Positions 14,210 through 64,000 of a stretch of 64,000 nt of DNA are shown one piece after another. The notes under the pieces are model-generated. The model searched no databases. It was not told the origin of the DNA and saw nothing but the letters and a program-made list of their open reading frames with translations. The position numbers and the translations under genes were made by a program. The stretch lies in the sequence record OM386655.1. One strand, given 5' to 3'. Every line of letters begins with the position of its first letter. The stretch's first letter is position 1. This stretch comes from Escherichia phage vB_EcoM_ESCO10.

Positions 14210-14704
14210 TTATAGATTTTTATACGCGTCCCAAGTACCAGTTCTAAACGTTGAAATGACTCGCTTAGCTCGGTTGGGGGTCTGTTTGTACCAACGAGAC
14301 TGTGCCAGGTTAACTGCGGCCTCATCCCAACGTTTTTGTTGGAGCATACGAAGAGAGTTAGTAAATCCTGCTACACCAGCTTCACCCATTTGGAAGACCA
14401 TATTAATTAGTGCGCAACGACGAACTTCGTCAAGCACATCATAAACAGGTTTCAATTTAGGATTACGCAGAATAGCTCTACGAGCATTTTCCACTGAACG
14501 ATTAAAGAGTTGTTCTGCTTCAGTCATTGTAATACGACCATTACAAACTCGACCCATAAGTTTATCAAGTTCAGCACGAGCAACATCTTTAGAAGGATTC
14601 TTGGTTATCAATTGACCGATGCCAATAGTCCAATAACCTTCGGTGTCTTTATAAAGATTTAAATCAAGACCTTCGTCTTGACGTAACATATCAAAAATAT
14701 CCAT
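14210..14704 (-). CDS. e: lysozyme (endolysin)
   Basis: 164 aa, near-identical to T4 lysozyme ([17 protein letters not shown], ...[11 protein letters not shown]). Confidence 0.97.
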
Positions 14705-14734
14705 AATACCTCCTGAGTATAGGAGGTATTTATT
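14705..14734 (-). promoter_or_regulatory. SD-sequestering hairpin and late-promoter-like box in front of lysozyme gene e
   Basis: mRNA ACCUCCU-AUACUC-AGGAGGU (14708..14727) holds the SD in the 3' arm 4 nt before AUG; AAUAAAUA box (14727..14734) abuts the 5' arm. Confidence 0.6.
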
Positions 14735-59448: not shown

Positions 59449-60729
59449 ATGGCAAAGATTAACGAATTACTGCGCGAGTCAACAACTACTACCAGCAACT
59501 CATTGGGTCGCCCTAATCTTGTTGCTTTGACCCGTGCTACCACTAAACTAATTTATCGCGATATCATCGCTGAACAGCGTACAAACCAGCCTATCGCTGC
59601 GTTATACGGTGTCAAATACCTTACCCCTGATAATGAATTTAGCTTCCAGACTGGTGCTACTTACGGTGGTGAAGTTGGTTCTAAAGACCGTGAAACTATC
59701 CCGGAATTAACAGATAAGTCCCAGGCTATTGCCAAGGGTGGCTACTTTAAGTATCAGAATGTGGTTTATAAGGCTCTCGAATCAAGCCCTCTCGCATCTA
59801 CTAGCGCTACAGAATTGTCTGAAGCCCTCCAAGAAGGTTTAGTATCATTAACGTGTCGTTTGGTTCCAGATGCAGCCCACACAGAGAAATTCGAAGCAAA
59901 CGATGTCGAAATTAGCAATGCTGTATTCCAGGTTAATAAATGGAACGCTCCTGTTAAGTCTCGTAAACTTAAAACTTCTTTGACTGTGGAATTAGCCCAA
60001 GATATGGAATCTAATGGCTTCGACGCGCCGGCGTTCTTAGAAGACCTTTTAGCTACTGTAATGGCAGATGAAATCAATAAAGACGTATTACAATCCTTGA
60101 TTACAGTATCTAAACGTTACAGAGTAACAGGTGTATCTGATAACGGAATTATTGATTTATCTTATAATTCTGCTCCAGAAGGCGCACGTAAATTGTACGA
60201 AATGGTTTGTGAGATGAATTCCGAAATTCAGAAAACTACTTCTTATTCCGGTACGTTTGTTGTTGCCTCTAGTCGTGTGGCTGCGATGCTCGCAGGTTCC
60301 GGTTGGTTGAAACATAAACCTGAAGATGAGGCTTGGCTCCCAGAAACAGCTTATGGTTATTTGATTAATGGCTTACCTGTGTTCTGTGATGTGAATAGTC
60401 CATTGGATTATGTTACCGTAGGTGTTAAAGAAGACTACGGCGGTAATGAAGTTGTTGGTTCTATTTTCTACGCCCCGTACACCGAAGGTTTGGATTTAGA
60501 CGATCAAGAACACGTGGGTGCTTATAAGGTTATTGTAGACCCGGATAGTTTACAACCTTCAATTTCTCTAATGGTCCGTTATGCACTTTCGGCTAACCCT
60601 TATACTGTAGCTAAAGACGATAAAGAAGCTCGTATTATCGACGCAACTAATATGGATTTAATGGCAGGCCAGAGTAATATGTCATATCTGCTTGGTGTTA
60701 AACTTCCTCCAATTATTTACGAGGCATAA
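59449..60729 (+). CDS. 24: gp24 capsid vertex protein
   Basis: 426 aa, highly similar to T4 gp24 (MAKINELLRESTTT.SNS.GRPNLVALTRATTKLIY...). Confidence 0.9.
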   Translation: MAKINELLRESTTTTSNSLGRPNLVALTRATTKLIYRDIIAEQRTNQPIAALYGVKYLTPDNEFSFQTGATYGGEVGSKDRETIPELTDKSQAIAKGGYFKYQNVVYKALESSPLASTSATELSEALQEGLVSLTCRLVPDAAHTEKFEANDVEISNAVFQVNKWNAPVKSRKLKTSLTVELAQDMESNGFDAPAFLEDLLATVMADEINKDVLQSLITVSKRYRVTGVSDNGIIDLSYNSAPEGARKLYEMVCEMNSEIQKTTSYSGTFVVASSRVAAMLAGSGWLKHKPEDEAWLPETAYGYLINGLPVFCDVNSPLDYVTVGVKEDYGGNEVVGSIFYAPYTEGLDLDDQEHVGAYKVIVDPDSLQPSISLMVRYALSANPYTVAKDDKEARIIDATNMDLMAGQSNMSYLLGVKLPPIIYEA

Positions 60730-62013
60730 ATGAAAAAGATTAATGCATTAATACAAGAATCAACTTTGACGGCGGCGAACCAGGTCGCCCGTCCTAATCT
60801 TCTTTCATATACCCGAGCAACCAATAAAAGAATTTTTAAAGCCCTTGTTGCTGAACAAAAAACTACTCAGCCTGTAGCAGCATTATATGGCGTCCGTGTT
60901 TTAAACCCAGATGATAAAATGACTTATCTTGGTGGAGCTACCTTCGCAGGTGAAATTGGTATGTTTGAACGTAAAAACATTCCTGAGTTCACTAATAAAG
61001 ACGAAGCCTATGCTGCTGGTGATATGTTCCAATTTGAAAGCATAGTTTTCAAGGTATTAGAAGCTTCTCCATTTGCCGGAACCACTGAAACCGATTTAGG
61101 TGAAGTTATTTCAGAAGCTATTGCAGCGGGTCATATTCGTATGATGTCTGATGCAGCCTTTACCAATAAATTTGAAAAAGGGCATCCTGAGATTGCTGAA
61201 GCCGGGTTCCGTATTGATAAGTGGCAGACTGAAGTTAAATCACGTAAACTTAAAACTTCTTTGACTGTAGAACTGGCTCAGGATTTAGAATCTAACGGGT
61301 TTAATGCTCCGGACTTTATCGACAATATTTTGGCTATCCAAATGGCTGAAGAAATCAATAAAGACGTTCTACAATCTTTAATTACCGTGAGTTCACGTTT
61401 TAAAGTCCAGGGTGTTTCCGAAAAAGGTGTACTTAATCTTACTGATGCCGCTTATGATAATGCTCAGGACCGCGCGCGTACTTTATATTACTATATGTGT
61501 GAAATGAATTCTGCGGTTCAACGCCAGACTTCTTTTGCAGGTACTTATGCAGTAGCTAGTTCGCGTTGTGCCGCTATTTTAGCTGCGTCCGGTTGGGTTG
61601 AGAAAAAAGAAGACCAGGACGAATTGGCTTATGGTATATTAAAGAATGGACTACCTCTTTATGCTGATATGAATAGTCCGTGTGATTATGTTATTGTTGG
61701 TGTAAATGCTGATATGGGTGAAGGACAGACGGTCGCATCTTTGTATTATGCGCCATATGTAGAAGGCCTGGAAAACGTAGATGATGAGGGTGATACTTCT
61801 GTAGGTGAATTTAAGGTTATTGTAGACCCGGAAAGTTTGCAACCTACCGTAGCCCTGTTGGCTCGATATGCACTGACAGCAAACCCGTATACCGTTGCCA
61901 AAGATGATAAAGAAGCTCGTATTATTGATGGGTCCGATATGGATAAGATGGCTAACCAAAGTCAATTGAGTTCTTATCTTGGTGTTAAACTTCCTCCATT
62001 GGATAAAAACTAA
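60730..62013 (+). CDS. gp24 paralog (second capsid vertex-like protein)
   Basis: 427 aa, roughly half identical to the upstream gp24 by eye (shared KSRKLKTSLTVELAQD, YAPY.EGL, ANPYTVAKDDKEARIID). Confidence 0.85.
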   Translation: MKKINALIQESTLTAANQVARPNLLSYTRATNKRIFKALVAEQKTTQPVAALYGVRVLNPDDKMTYLGGATFAGEIGMFERKNIPEFTNKDEAYAAGDMFQFESIVFKVLEASPFAGTTETDLGEVISEAIAAGHIRMMSDAAFTNKFEKGHPEIAEAGFRIDKWQTEVKSRKLKTSLTVELAQDLESNGFNAPDFIDNILAIQMAEEINKDVLQSLITVSSRFKVQGVSEKGVLNLTDAAYDNAQDRARTLYYYMCEMNSAVQRQTSFAGTYAVASSRCAAILAASGWVEKKEDQDELAYGILKNGLPLYADMNSPCDYVIVGVNADMGEGQTVASLYYAPYVEGLENVDDEGDTSVGEFKVIVDPESLQPTVALLARYALTANPYTVAKDDKEARIIDGSDMDKMANQSQLSSYLGVKLPPLDKN

Positions 62014-62038: not shown

Positions 62039-63046
62039 TTATTTGGATACTAATTCAATCCACACAGCTCGTAGCGTATCTTTAACACACTCAATGAGCT
62101 GCTTTTTAACTTCAACAGGATTTTCTGCATCGGTTAATTCTAATTCTTCACGGGACGCCTCTTCCAAAATATCTTGGACTGTTAGTCCCATTACCTTTCC
62201 GAAATCCTTAGGCGTTACTTCACCAATCTTACTGATAACATTGTTAATACGGTTAACAGTCACATAATCAGTGAATTGCCACATCAAGTCCATGTCATCT
62301 TGGGACAACACAACAGCAGCCTTGATAGGCTTATCAGACTTTTTCTTTTCACTGAATTTAGAGTTCTTACATTTAATCGCTACACGATTTCCATTTGGAA
62401 GCCAGGTAGGAACATCAGGTTTCAGTACAAAGCCTTCAGCCGTAAATACTTTGCCTTCAACCTTTGGAATAAAATCAGTCGAGTTTGCGATAGTCAGGCC
62501 TGCATTATCCACTGCAAAATTGTAATCAGGAACCACAGAATCAAAATCATTAGGGAGCTTAATAAGGTCTTCAAAGCTACCAGTAGCCAGACATGGAGCA
62601 ACTTTAAACTTATGGATAATGCAGAATGCTTCCATCAATGTATCAGTCAGAACAGATTCTGTGCCGTCGTCTTTAGTAACGCGGATATCGAACACATAAA
62701 AATCTTTATCACCATAATCAACATTCTTCTGAATACCTGAACCGGCGAACTCACCATAAATCTGGTACGACTGATAATCAATCGATTCAATTAGATGCTG
62801 AACAGATTTAATAGAATCAGCATAATTCTTTAAAACAATTTCATAGCCATAGAAATCTTCGGCTGGGAGAATTGGGCCAGTGCGCTTGGCGCATGTGACT
62901 GCGTCACGTTCTATGATTAGACTAAAGTTCGTACCATGAATCTTTTCACGAGCTACCCATTCACCATCGGTCATACCATGGGTACGGAGTTTTTCAATGA
63001 ACTTATTGTTGTAGTGGTTTTCCAGACTGCTATATTTCTTGAACAT
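62039..63046 (-). CDS. rnlB: RNA ligase 2
   Basis: 335 aa, highly similar to T4 Rnl2 ([19 protein letters not shown]...[13 protein letters not shown]... with KxHG ligase motif). Confidence 0.9.
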
Positions 63047-63133
63047 AAATCACCATAATAAATATAATTAAATAGAAGAGCTAGTAATCTTCTGTCACCA
63101 AGCCAAATGGTTTAACGGAAGGACCTAGACCCA

Positions 63134-63373
63134 TTATAACACACCTAAATTTAAAGCATAATACTTTAGACCAAAAACGCGCTTAGCGCCGACCTTTTTA
63201 TTAATCAAACGTTTACGATACACTACTTTTTCTCGTGCTTTAAATTTCTCTTTGGCATTTTCAACTTCAACCCAGGCCTTACCCATTTCTTTAGCTGTCC
63301 CGCCTAAGAGCTTGGCTATTTCAATAAATGTCATACCAGATTCATGTAAAAAATGTACTTTAATCTTATCCAT
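63134..63373 (-). CDS. small basic protein with possible helix-turn-helix
   Basis: 79-aa ORF; MTFIEIAKLLGGTAKEMGKAW HTH-like segment; early-type promoter upstream. Confidence 0.45.
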   Translation of the reverse strand: MDKIKVHFLHESGMTFIEIAKLLGGTAKEMGKAWVEVENAKEKFKAREKVVYRKRLINKKVGAKRVFGLKYYALNLGVL

Positions 63374-63402
63374 AATGATTCCCGTGTTGAGTTAGTGAAG
63401 CC

Positions 63403-63432
63403 ATCTTAACATGGGATTTTTAACTTGTAAAC
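63403..63432 (-). promoter_or_regulatory. early-type promoter for gene 63134..63373
   Basis: GTTTAC 63427..63432, 18 nt, TAAGAT 63403..63408. Confidence 0.45.
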
Positions 63433-63522
63433 AGGAGTTTTATACCAGATATTCTTGAACGAAAGATTTACTTTACAACCGCTAGTACCTTTAATAAATA
63501 TTAAATTAATAACGGGGGATTT

Positions 63523-64000
63523 ATGACACAAACTACAGGTGAAAAAGAAGGTGTATTTTACGGTTATTCTCTTTATGATTTGAATAAAGAAAAACTAATA
63601 ACTTTTGATGAATTACTTACGGGTATTCGAGGAGAGCCTGGAGAAAATGGCGATATTGGACCAAAAGGTGACCAAGGTCCTGTGGGACCCCAAGGTATTC
63701 AAGGGGAAACAGGGGCCCAAGGTATTCAGGGTATTCAAGGTCTAAAAGGTGATAAGGGTGACCAAGGTATTCAAGGACTAAAAGGAGATAAAGGCGACCA
63801 AGGTATTCAAGGAGTTCCTGGAACTCAGGGTCCACAGGGTATTCAAGGTCTAAAAGGTGATAAGGGTGACCAAGGTATTCAAGGGGAAACAGGGGCCCAA
63901 GGTATTCAGGGTATTCAAGGAGTTCCAGGTGCCAAAGGAGATATAGGCCCAGTCGGTCCGGCAGGTTTAACATGGAAAGGTTCTTGGAATATTGCAACTG
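63523..64000 (+). CDS. collagen-like (Gly-X-Y repeat) protein, 3' truncated by window edge
   Basis: ATG 63523 behind GGGGG SD; frame 1 open to window end; about 38 uninterrupted Gly-X-Y triplets from 63622; missing from ORF track because no stop in window. Confidence 0.7.
   Translation, partial: MTQTTGEKEGVFYGYSLYDLNKEKLITFDELLTGIRGEPGENGDIGPKGDQGPVGPQGIQGETGAQGIQGIQGLKGDKGDQGIQGLKGDKGDQGIQGVPGTQGPQGIQGLKGDKGDQGIQGETGAQGIQGIQGVPGAKGDIGPVGPAGLTWKGSWNIAT
63622..63963 (+). repeat. Gly-X-Y triplet repeat region with longer direct repeats
   Basis: ggtattcaaggtctaaaaggtgataagggtgaccaaggtattcaagg recurs around 63841 and in diverged form around 63721/63766. Confidence 0.8.

Follow-up and report, generated by a model that had tools for sequence, protein, structure and literature searches.

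A collagen-like gene in the hoc region of Escherichia phage vB_EcoM_ESCO10: 5' part of a probable virion fibre gene with a likely place on the head

In this work, we describe a gene for a collagen-like protein at the right-hand end of a 64,000-nucleotide (nt) stretch of DNA from Escherichia phage vB_EcoM_ESCO10 (sequence record OM386655.1), referred to below, at its full length, as the window. The segment at 63523-64000 is read as the first 37% or so of a real, probably late gene for a trimeric, collagen-like virion fibre, likely dispensable and associated with the phage head, an overall reading which we put forward with evenly balanced confidence. Records of the gene go back to the genome of VR7 (2010), and the window copy is a new allele of a known, uncharacterised family of phage collagen-like fibre proteins.

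Reading frame and collagen repeats

The following features define the gene and its strand (aa, amino acids; ORF, open reading frame):

63523-64000, plus strand: collagen-like fibre gene, of which the 5' part (159 codons) is present; orthologous to VR5 gp229 and VR7 ORF196w (PHROG 5073); no in-frame stop, runs past the window end
63514-63518, plus strand: Shine-Dalgarno-like GGGGG, read off the sequence (GGAGG in VR7 and VR26)
63523-63621, plus strand: conserved N-terminal motif of 33 aa, G-x3-G-V-F-Y-G-Y-S-L-Y-D-L...K-L-I-x-F, a putative virion-attachment or trimer-nucleation segment
63622-63972, plus strand: collagen block 1, with 39 Gly-X-Y triplets (among them GIQ nine times, GDQ four times, GLK and GDK three times each), from Pfam, TRF and direct count
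63967-64000, plus strand: first 11 residues (LTWKGSWNIAT) of a CBM5/12-like middle knob, identical here to VR5 and VR7
63617-63997, minus strand: antisense ORF of 126 aa with a low-complexity, LEYLG-type translation; a by-product of the repeats, not a gene

Direct reading and translation give, from the ATG at 63523, 159 codons without a stop up to the window end, the remaining five frames containing 2-13 stops each over the same positions; an earlier start is excluded, because of an in-frame TAA at 63502. Nucleotide differences between the window and VR5 fall on plus-frame codon positions 1, 2 and 3 in the ratio 18/14/41, and only 2 nt differ in the N-terminal 99. In 10 related phages, orthologous plus-strand ORFs of 335-527 aa continue without a stop across the non-repeat domains. 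Coding is in the plus frame, and the gene is real. Both the ORF and its GGGGG had been pointed out in an earlier, sequence-only reading of the window, made by a model, which had also observed, rightly, that the program-made ORF list lacks the plus-strand ORF and reports the antisense one in its place; the omission arises because the plus-strand ORF runs off the window end.

The list, which holds the antisense ORF only, speaks for the opposite assignment, in which 63617-63997 is the true gene and the plus-strand ORF an artefact driven by the repeats. The probability of this is negligible, the assignment being already refuted by the third-position bias in the plus frame, by the full-length plus-strand orthologues and by the detection, as a protein, of a plus-frame family member, W70_129, described below. 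Among homologues, moreover, the longest antisense open stretch ranges from 71 to 181 aa, a length that is not conserved; taken together with the plus-frame substitution pattern, this marks the antisense ORF as the usual by-product of GGN-rich repeats.

In the encoded protein, the non-repeat residues 1-33 are followed, at residues 34-150, by 39 unbroken Gly-X-Y triplets (38 canonical ones and a final GLT), recognised by Pfam as Collagen (PF01391) with E=7.6e-21 and 74.1 bits, against a cut-off of 27.2. TRF finds repeat periods of 9, 36, 72 and 108 nt in the underlying DNA, in which two stretches are duplicated exactly, one of 51 nt (63690/63870) and one of 50 nt (63727/63835). The sequence-only reading, which had described an N-terminal segment of about 33 aa and at least 38 triplets built from near-identical DNA repeats, was accurate on these points. 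As to the continuation that it proposed beyond the window end, the ORF does stay open, but the Gly-X-Y run stops at 63972, where the non-collagen LTWKGSWNIAT sequence takes over.

The protein is predicted to form a trimeric triple helix. Its collagen is rich in Gln (24%) and in charged residues (29%) and unusually poor in Pro, which takes only 12% of X and Y positions, a share close to that of VR5 (12-15%) and far from the 26-32% of Kosakonia 305, CR3 and W70; with so little Pro and so many charges, the putative helix is of uncertain stability.

Relatives, domain architecture and exchange of distal domains

The window belongs to a T4-type coliphage; its identity to the Dhakavirus phages VR5, IME08, IME341, dhaeg and CLB_P2 is about 91-93% across 23.5 kb, and no closer record was found among 50,697 phage genomes. 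Positions 63000-64000 align to VR5 with 100% coverage and 92% nt identity, to VR7 over 81% of their length, and to VR25, VR26 and KIT01 over the N-terminal part of the gene. Within the 477 aligned nt of the fibre gene, identity to VR5 is 85% overall and 92-100% at both ends, dropping to 47-74% (ungapped comparison) in the centre of block 1, where the repeats are rearranged and the window has its own 50- and 51-nt duplications. Over the final 150 nt, 143 positions (95%) agree with VR5 and VR7, and the sequence leads in frame into the conserved knob. Neither look-ups of the exact rnlB, 24.3 and two gp24 products nor DNA scans, with exact or degenerate patterns, of IMG/VR, of JGI metagenomes and of GTDB genomes carried the sequence past the window end; they gave only VR5, VR25 and VR26.

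Annotated orthologues, from coliphages of the genera Dhakavirus and Gaprivervirus, are VR5 gp229 (433 aa, YP_009205873), VR7 ORF196w (YP_004063877), the 508-aa protein of VR26, KIT01_184 (520 aa) and the VR25 protein. All share with the window the locus, the orientation, the 33-aa N-terminus and the start of the knob; in VR5, block 1 also numbers 39 triplets. The VR7 annotators described ORF196w as a "collagen triple helix repeat domain protein" and noted its similarity to a B. cereus collagen-repeat protein; RefSeq relabels the VR26 and KIT01 proteins "tail fiber protein". No paper discussing the VR5/VR7-type gene was found in the searchable literature, which does not include the original VR7 and JS98 genome papers.

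With the 159-aa window fragment as query, the repeat swamped the homology search, which yielded 3866 generic collagen proteins but not one true orthologue. When, along the lines suggested by the sequence-only reading, the N-terminal motif was used instead (tblastn, 46-aa query), it was found in 24 phage records. Identity to the window is 91-98% in the T4-type phages VR5, VR7, VR25, VR26 and KIT01, 53% in Kosakonia 305, and 46-63% in Vequintavirinae, namely Cronobacter phages CR3, CR8 and PBES02, Pectobacterium phages P7_Pc and POP15/17/18, E. coli phages A7_1 and A5-4, and Salmonella phage SSBI34. The window carries the family motif, G-x3-G-[VI]-[FY]-[YF]-G-x-[AS]-[LF]-Y-D-L...K-x-I-x-F, directly before block 1. 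The best PHROG is phrog_5073 for all members tested: VR5 gp229 (E=1.5e-111), A7_1 gp112, dhaeg_81 and JS10 gp176. The last two, JS10 gp176 (L005:3716-4723) and dhaeg_81 (L015:5444-6949), represent a second N-terminal variant, which starts with GHDGRG.F.G and has about 45 extra residues; with this variant included in the alignment, G6, G10, G14 and F28 are invariant. JS10 gp176 has only 5 + 18 triplets, and dhaeg_81 features two CBM-like knobs and yet another C-terminal domain.

Full-length relatives consist of five parts: the N-terminal motif of about 33 aa, collagen block 1, a knob of about 50 aa, collagen block 2 and a C-terminal domain of 125-160 aa. The knob has the form W-[KR]-G-x-[WY]...Y...[ND]-[ED]-[AT]-V...G-[SA]-x-Y-F...W. 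In the knobs of five relatives, CBM_5_12 (PF02839) is the sole Pfam family matched, above the cut-off of 26.2 bits in JS10 (27.7) and below it in VR5, VR26, Kosakonia 305 and CR3 (14-19). Sequence searches of the PDB with the knob and the C-terminal domain gave no significant match. The sequence-only reading had expected the tandem repeats to make the length hypervariable and advised a comparison of repeat numbers; block 1 indeed contains 39 triplets in the window and VR5, 38 in VR26 and KIT01 and 50 in VR7, and block 2 ranges from 27 to 60 among relatives.

The C-terminal domain of VR5 type is rare, and gene calls in the databases are mostly fragmentary: the domain was found by tblastn in VR5 and VR7 only, and protein searches gave one match among 5.8 billion proteins, three with a profile, and five among 1.84 billion representatives. 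One and the same N-terminus is found, within the family, with differing C-terminal types. The rV5-like phage A7_1 has the type of VR26 and JS10, and the rV5-like W70 that of Kosakonia 305 (loci compared: A7_1, L012:6977-8560; W70, L017:3269-4852; VR26, L003:5332-6858; Kosakonia 305, L006:4593-6002). The sharing of C-terminal types by rV5-like and T4-like phages points to horizontal exchange of the distal domain between subfamilies, a pattern expected for a distal ligand-binding domain. An AF2 model of the VR5-type domain, built from a five-sequence alignment (pLDDT 69, pTM 0.62), predicts a beta structure of eight to nine strands, whose matches in BFVD are the C-termini of other phage collagen-like proteins, including that of JS10. 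A model from the single sequence had been discarded (pLDDT 54, Foldseek against PDB empty). A C-terminal jelly-roll trimer of C1q/TNF fold, as in the heads of BclA or C1q-TNF-type proteins, was not recognised.

Presence in virions, gene order and place on the particle

One family member has been seen in particles. In purified virions of phage W70, mass spectrometry detected W70_129, a phrog_5073 protein of 53 kDa, with 728 spectra, compared with 1596 for the major head protein and 311 for the sheath; the protein is also visible after sodium dodecyl sulphate-polyacrylamide gel electrophoresis (PMC11370258). W70_129 consists of an N-terminal motif (GVFYGNAFYDL), two collagen blocks, a middle knob and a C-terminal domain, and shares with the window protein the N-terminal motif and the PHROG, the five-part architecture of the window copy being known only to the knob start. 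That a member of the PHROG 5073 family is a virion protein is therefore proven; this is the sole experimental datum found for the family, and it is silent on location within the particle. The sequence-only reading had remarked that collagen-like proteins of phages are usually fibre or decoration proteins, a view to which such an abundant architectural twin lends support (PMC11370258). W70_129 differs, on the other hand, in several respects: it belongs to a phage of the Vequintavirinae, with an rV5-type capsid, Pro makes up 26-31% of its X and Y residues versus 12%, its C-terminus is of the Kosakonia 305 type, and its gene has no Hoc-like neighbour.

Another collagen-domain protein known from virions, CB7_10 of the CB7 proteome, was set aside, being a 112-kDa protein that corresponds to the large neighbour of the fibre protein (CR3 gp008/W70_131 type) and lies outside this family. 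The A7_1 homologue of W70_131, gp110 (L012:2463-6263), is a 1266-aa protein encoded two genes after the major capsid protein (MCP), in which some nine collagen segments take turns with small globular units, themselves repeated. W70_131 itself has the top spectral count in W70 virions, 2032 versus 1596 for the MCP (PMC11370258), and A7_1 gp110 and W70_131 may represent another unrecognised head fibre labelled "tail fiber".

The place of the fibre is suggested by gene order. In T4-type phages the gene lies within the 23-24-...-hoc-inh head cluster, and a co-oriented gene for a Hoc-like protein of 272-288 aa (Hoc2) follows it in 7 out of 7 relatives (VR5, VR7, VR26, KIT01, JS10, dhaeg and Kosakonia 305), at a distance of 9-30 nt, the exception being VR7, in whose record the fibre gene is frameshifted. 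Hoc2 keeps Hoc's C-terminal domain for capsid binding, with VQESRNG, a motif defined in a study that also documents phages with two Hocs (PMC10385173). In AnYang, which has the T4 arrangement, the fibre gene and the second Hoc-like gene are both missing, and this joint absence indicates that the two genes behave as one dispensable cassette. In Kosakonia phage 305 the plus-strand Hoc-like gene (L006:6032-7246) is apparently the sole Hoc, no minus-strand hoc being annotated between it and inh. Head genes are the neighbours outside the T4-type phages as well: in Vequintavirinae, the fibre gene is found between the MCP gene and those for head completion, adaptor and terminator, far from baseplate and fibre genes, and in a T1-like siphophage (Rogunavirinae) a collagen/CBM-like gene lies between prohead protease and MCP.

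The surroundings of the gene in the window are as follows:

63134-63373, minus strand: homologue of gene 24.3 (Pfam DUF2774, PF11242, E=7.2e-30), divergent from the fibre gene
62039-63046, minus strand: rnlB (RNA ligase 2), an ORF with annotated rnlB at the syntenic place in VR5 and VR7
63493-63500, plus strand: AATAAATA, which agrees with the T4 late promoter TATAAATA at 7 of 8 positions; its end is 22 nt short of the ATG, and it is conserved in VR5, VR7 and VR26

In strand and position the window gene agrees with its T4-type orthologues, which lie on the plus strand between 24.3 and hoc; the place of a downstream Hoc-like gene falls beyond the window end. The sequence-only reading had placed it next to rnlB, in the position of 24.2, 24.3 and hoc of T4, and found the region different from T4. 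The neighbourhood is the one named, but rnlB does not directly adjoin, as the 24.3 homologue lies between; the latter gene is present, and only 24.2 is missing between rnlB and 24.3 (63047-63133), being present in VR7 and VR26. The contrast with T4 is confirmed: AnYang has the T4-like order, 24.3 and directly after it a minus-strand hoc, and the window and its closest relatives have a plus-strand insertion. Further upstream, the window contains two tandem paralogues of the capsid vertex protein gp24, at 59449-60729 (plus strand, 426 aa) and 60730-62013 (plus strand, 427 aa). There are likewise two copies in VR5, VR7, VR26, JS10, dhaeg and Kosakonia 305, and one in KIT01 and AnYang.

As to expression, the canonical TATAAATA is found 21-48 nt upstream of gp23, gp24 and other recognised late genes of the window, and no sigma-70-like plus-strand site was found in the 149-nt divergent intergenic region preceding the fibre gene. 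Late expression from the putative AATAAATA element is plausible. The only other AATAAATA of the window that precedes an ORF of at least 60 aa is at 14727-14734 on the minus strand, where it lies 22 nt ahead of the start, at 14704, of an ORF of 164 aa on that strand. An upstream ATG precedes the fibre gene in VR5, VR7, VR26 and a Logan contig (SRR22213611, L011), and in VR5 belongs to a mini-ORF of 17 codons beginning ATGCCAGATATT; this mini-ORF is absent from the window, because the codon reads ATA at 63442-63444, within the intergenic region 63374-63522.

From gene order we infer a head location, and we also infer late timing and the binding of a ligand. By analogy with the orthologues, the conserved N-terminus of about 33 aa would fix the fibre to the particle, nucleate the trimer, or both; the triple helix of collagen block 1 would serve as a spacer, its length drifting by repeat slippage; the CBM5/12-like knob and then a second collagen helix would follow; and a variable, immunoglobulin (Ig)-like beta-sandwich at the distal end would contact a surface ligand, probably a glycan. 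Such a dispensable head fibre would be deployed together with a second, shorter decoration protein, the Hoc-like one whose gene comes immediately downstream in all related T4-type phages, and might make the initial contact with surfaces of the host or the environment, weakly and reversibly, along the lines suggested for Hoc, for the phi29 head fibres and for SPP1 gp12.

Several observations weigh against this head-fibre reading. No family member has been localised on the virion by experiment, the head being assigned from gene order alone, and PHROG, RefSeq and the GenBank record of W70 all say "tail fiber" or "side tail fiber", labels which look automatic. The 30-aa anchor is about 50% identical across phages with very different capsid proteins (T4 gp23 and the rV5-type MCP), and direct binding to the capsid lattice is for this reason hard to reconcile with the data, which leaves room for a tail or neck location. 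A docking partner common to these phages was not found, Hoc2 having no similarity to the 211- and 216-aa proteins whose genes immediately precede the fibre gene in A7_1 and CR3. The late-promoter match is imperfect and the model of the C-terminal domain of moderate confidence only. Finally, the 3' two-thirds of the gene lie beyond 64000, and two relatives have defective copies, so that the intactness of the window copy cannot be taken for granted: in the VR7 record (L002:6332-7615) the gene is frameshifted inside the C-terminal domain, and in the Logan contig (L011:1845-2597) block 1 contains an in-frame TGA and is joined directly to the C-terminal domain, without knob and block 2.

A possible, if somewhat unlikely, alternative is an accessory side fibre of the tail or baseplate, that is, a secondary receptor-binding protein whose N-terminus docks on the tail and whose C-terminus sets the host range. 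Many proteins that bear the label tail fibre or minor tail protein do contain collagen segments and the same CBM-like knob (197 phage records; "tail" categories in PHROG), receptor-binding proteins typically swap C-termini among phages that share hosts, a bundle of thin, flexible tail fibres is seen in micrographs of W70 (PMC11370258), and conservation of the motif across two myovirus subfamilies fits a conserved tail part better than divergent capsids. However, in every genome examined (Straboviridae, Vequintavirinae, Rogunavirinae) the gene lies inside the head module and not in those for tail, baseplate and fibres; the W70 fibre proteins whose genes adjoin the baseplate genes are others, W70_107 and W70_112 (PMC11370258). 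Moreover, known attachment domains of tail fibres, such as PfN and Pf2 of the Stf type (domain definitions in PMC3368898) or those of the T4 gp34/36/37 type, are absent, Collagen being the sole Pfam family in the VR5 orthologue, and close relatives which infect E. coli normally, such as AnYang, lack the gene. A fibre of the neck or collar, a whisker-like trimer near the head-tail joint with a position like that of T4 fibritin, would agree with the Vequintavirinae, where the gene is followed directly by those for head completion, adaptor and tail terminator, and with the short conserved anchor, neck proteins being better conserved than capsid surfaces. This location is quite improbable: a gene for fibritin (wac) is already present elsewhere in the window, and the neighbour of the fibre gene in T4-type phages is hoc and not a neck gene.

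It is also very unlikely that the window copy is a decaying or truncated remnant, whose repeats have no functional consequence here. Such a remnant would be compatible with a stop codon and 3' part lying outside the window, with the two defective copies and with the dispensability of the cassette seen in AnYang. Against it, all 159 codons are open and the other five frames all contain stops, the N-terminal part hardly differs from that of VR5, with substitutions biased to third positions, and the near-identity with VR5 and VR7 extends in frame into the knob. Both defective copies may also be technical, the VR7 frameshift a sequencing error and the Logan contig a collapse of repeats in short-read assembly. 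The window copy is presumably intact past 64000.

Known systems and significance

The functional model for a head-borne collagen fibre is SPP1 gp12, a trimeric, collagen-like auxiliary protein of the capsid that sits at hexamer centres, is dispensable, and binds reversibly and in a temperature-dependent manner (PMC5292684, PMC7602432). No sequence relationship is claimed: the collagen motif of gp12 is N-terminal and its C-terminal part helical, and the protein has neither CBM-like knob nor beta-sandwich tip. T4 Hoc and Hoc-like proteins share the genomic neighbourhood; they can be dispensed with and hold adhesive beta-sandwich domains out from the particle, as is predicted for the fibre. There are phages with a second Hoc, or in which the Hoc anchor serves for the display of other domains (PMC10385173); the anchor of the collagen fibre itself, if there is one, would in contrast be N-terminal. 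The EPclA-D proteins of E. coli O157 prophages are likewise collagen-like E. coli phage proteins automatically annotated as tail fibres, forming trimers with modular capping domains (PMC3368898), but they contain PfN and Pf2/PfC domains as in lambda Stf, which the window family lacks. A collagen stalk with a beta-rich C-terminal head is also found in Bacillus BclA and C1q-type proteins.

In the EPclA-D proteins, which are highly thermostable, Pro occupies about half of the X positions (PMC3368898). VR5 and VR7 are described as low-temperature phages, according to the title of Kaliniene et al. 2010 as cited in PMC6266253. The Pro-poor collagen, the low-temperature habit of VR5 and VR7 and the temperature-dependent binding of SPP1 gp12 together make a thermolabile stalk a testable idea, although a speculative one. 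On these analogies one may imagine, tentatively and with considerable doubt, a portable "plug-in" head fibre: a collagen stalk would be held on the capsid by the anchor of about 30 aa that T4-like myoviruses have in common with rV5-like ones, in T4-type phages with or through the second Hoc, and a collagen/CBM-like gene is similarly placed among the head genes of T1-like siphophages; the distal Ig-like domain would be traded between unrelated phages of the same hosts; and the Pro-poor helix of the VR-type phages and the window, melting near body temperature, would act as a thermal switch of adhesion, comparable to the reversible, temperature-dependent capsid binding of SPP1 gp12.

For annotation, the analysis supplies an overlooked gene at the window edge, discards a false antisense ORF there, and finds the "tail fiber" label that the family bears in RefSeq and PHROGs unsupported by gene context. 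T4-type phages are a model for capsid decoration, by Hoc and Soc, and for phage display. If the head-fibre reading is true, the hoc locus would hold a second, collagen-based display system, useful for studies of adhesion to surfaces or mucus, of host-range modulation and of temperature adaptation, and its exchangeable distal domains and variable stalk length would add to that usefulness.

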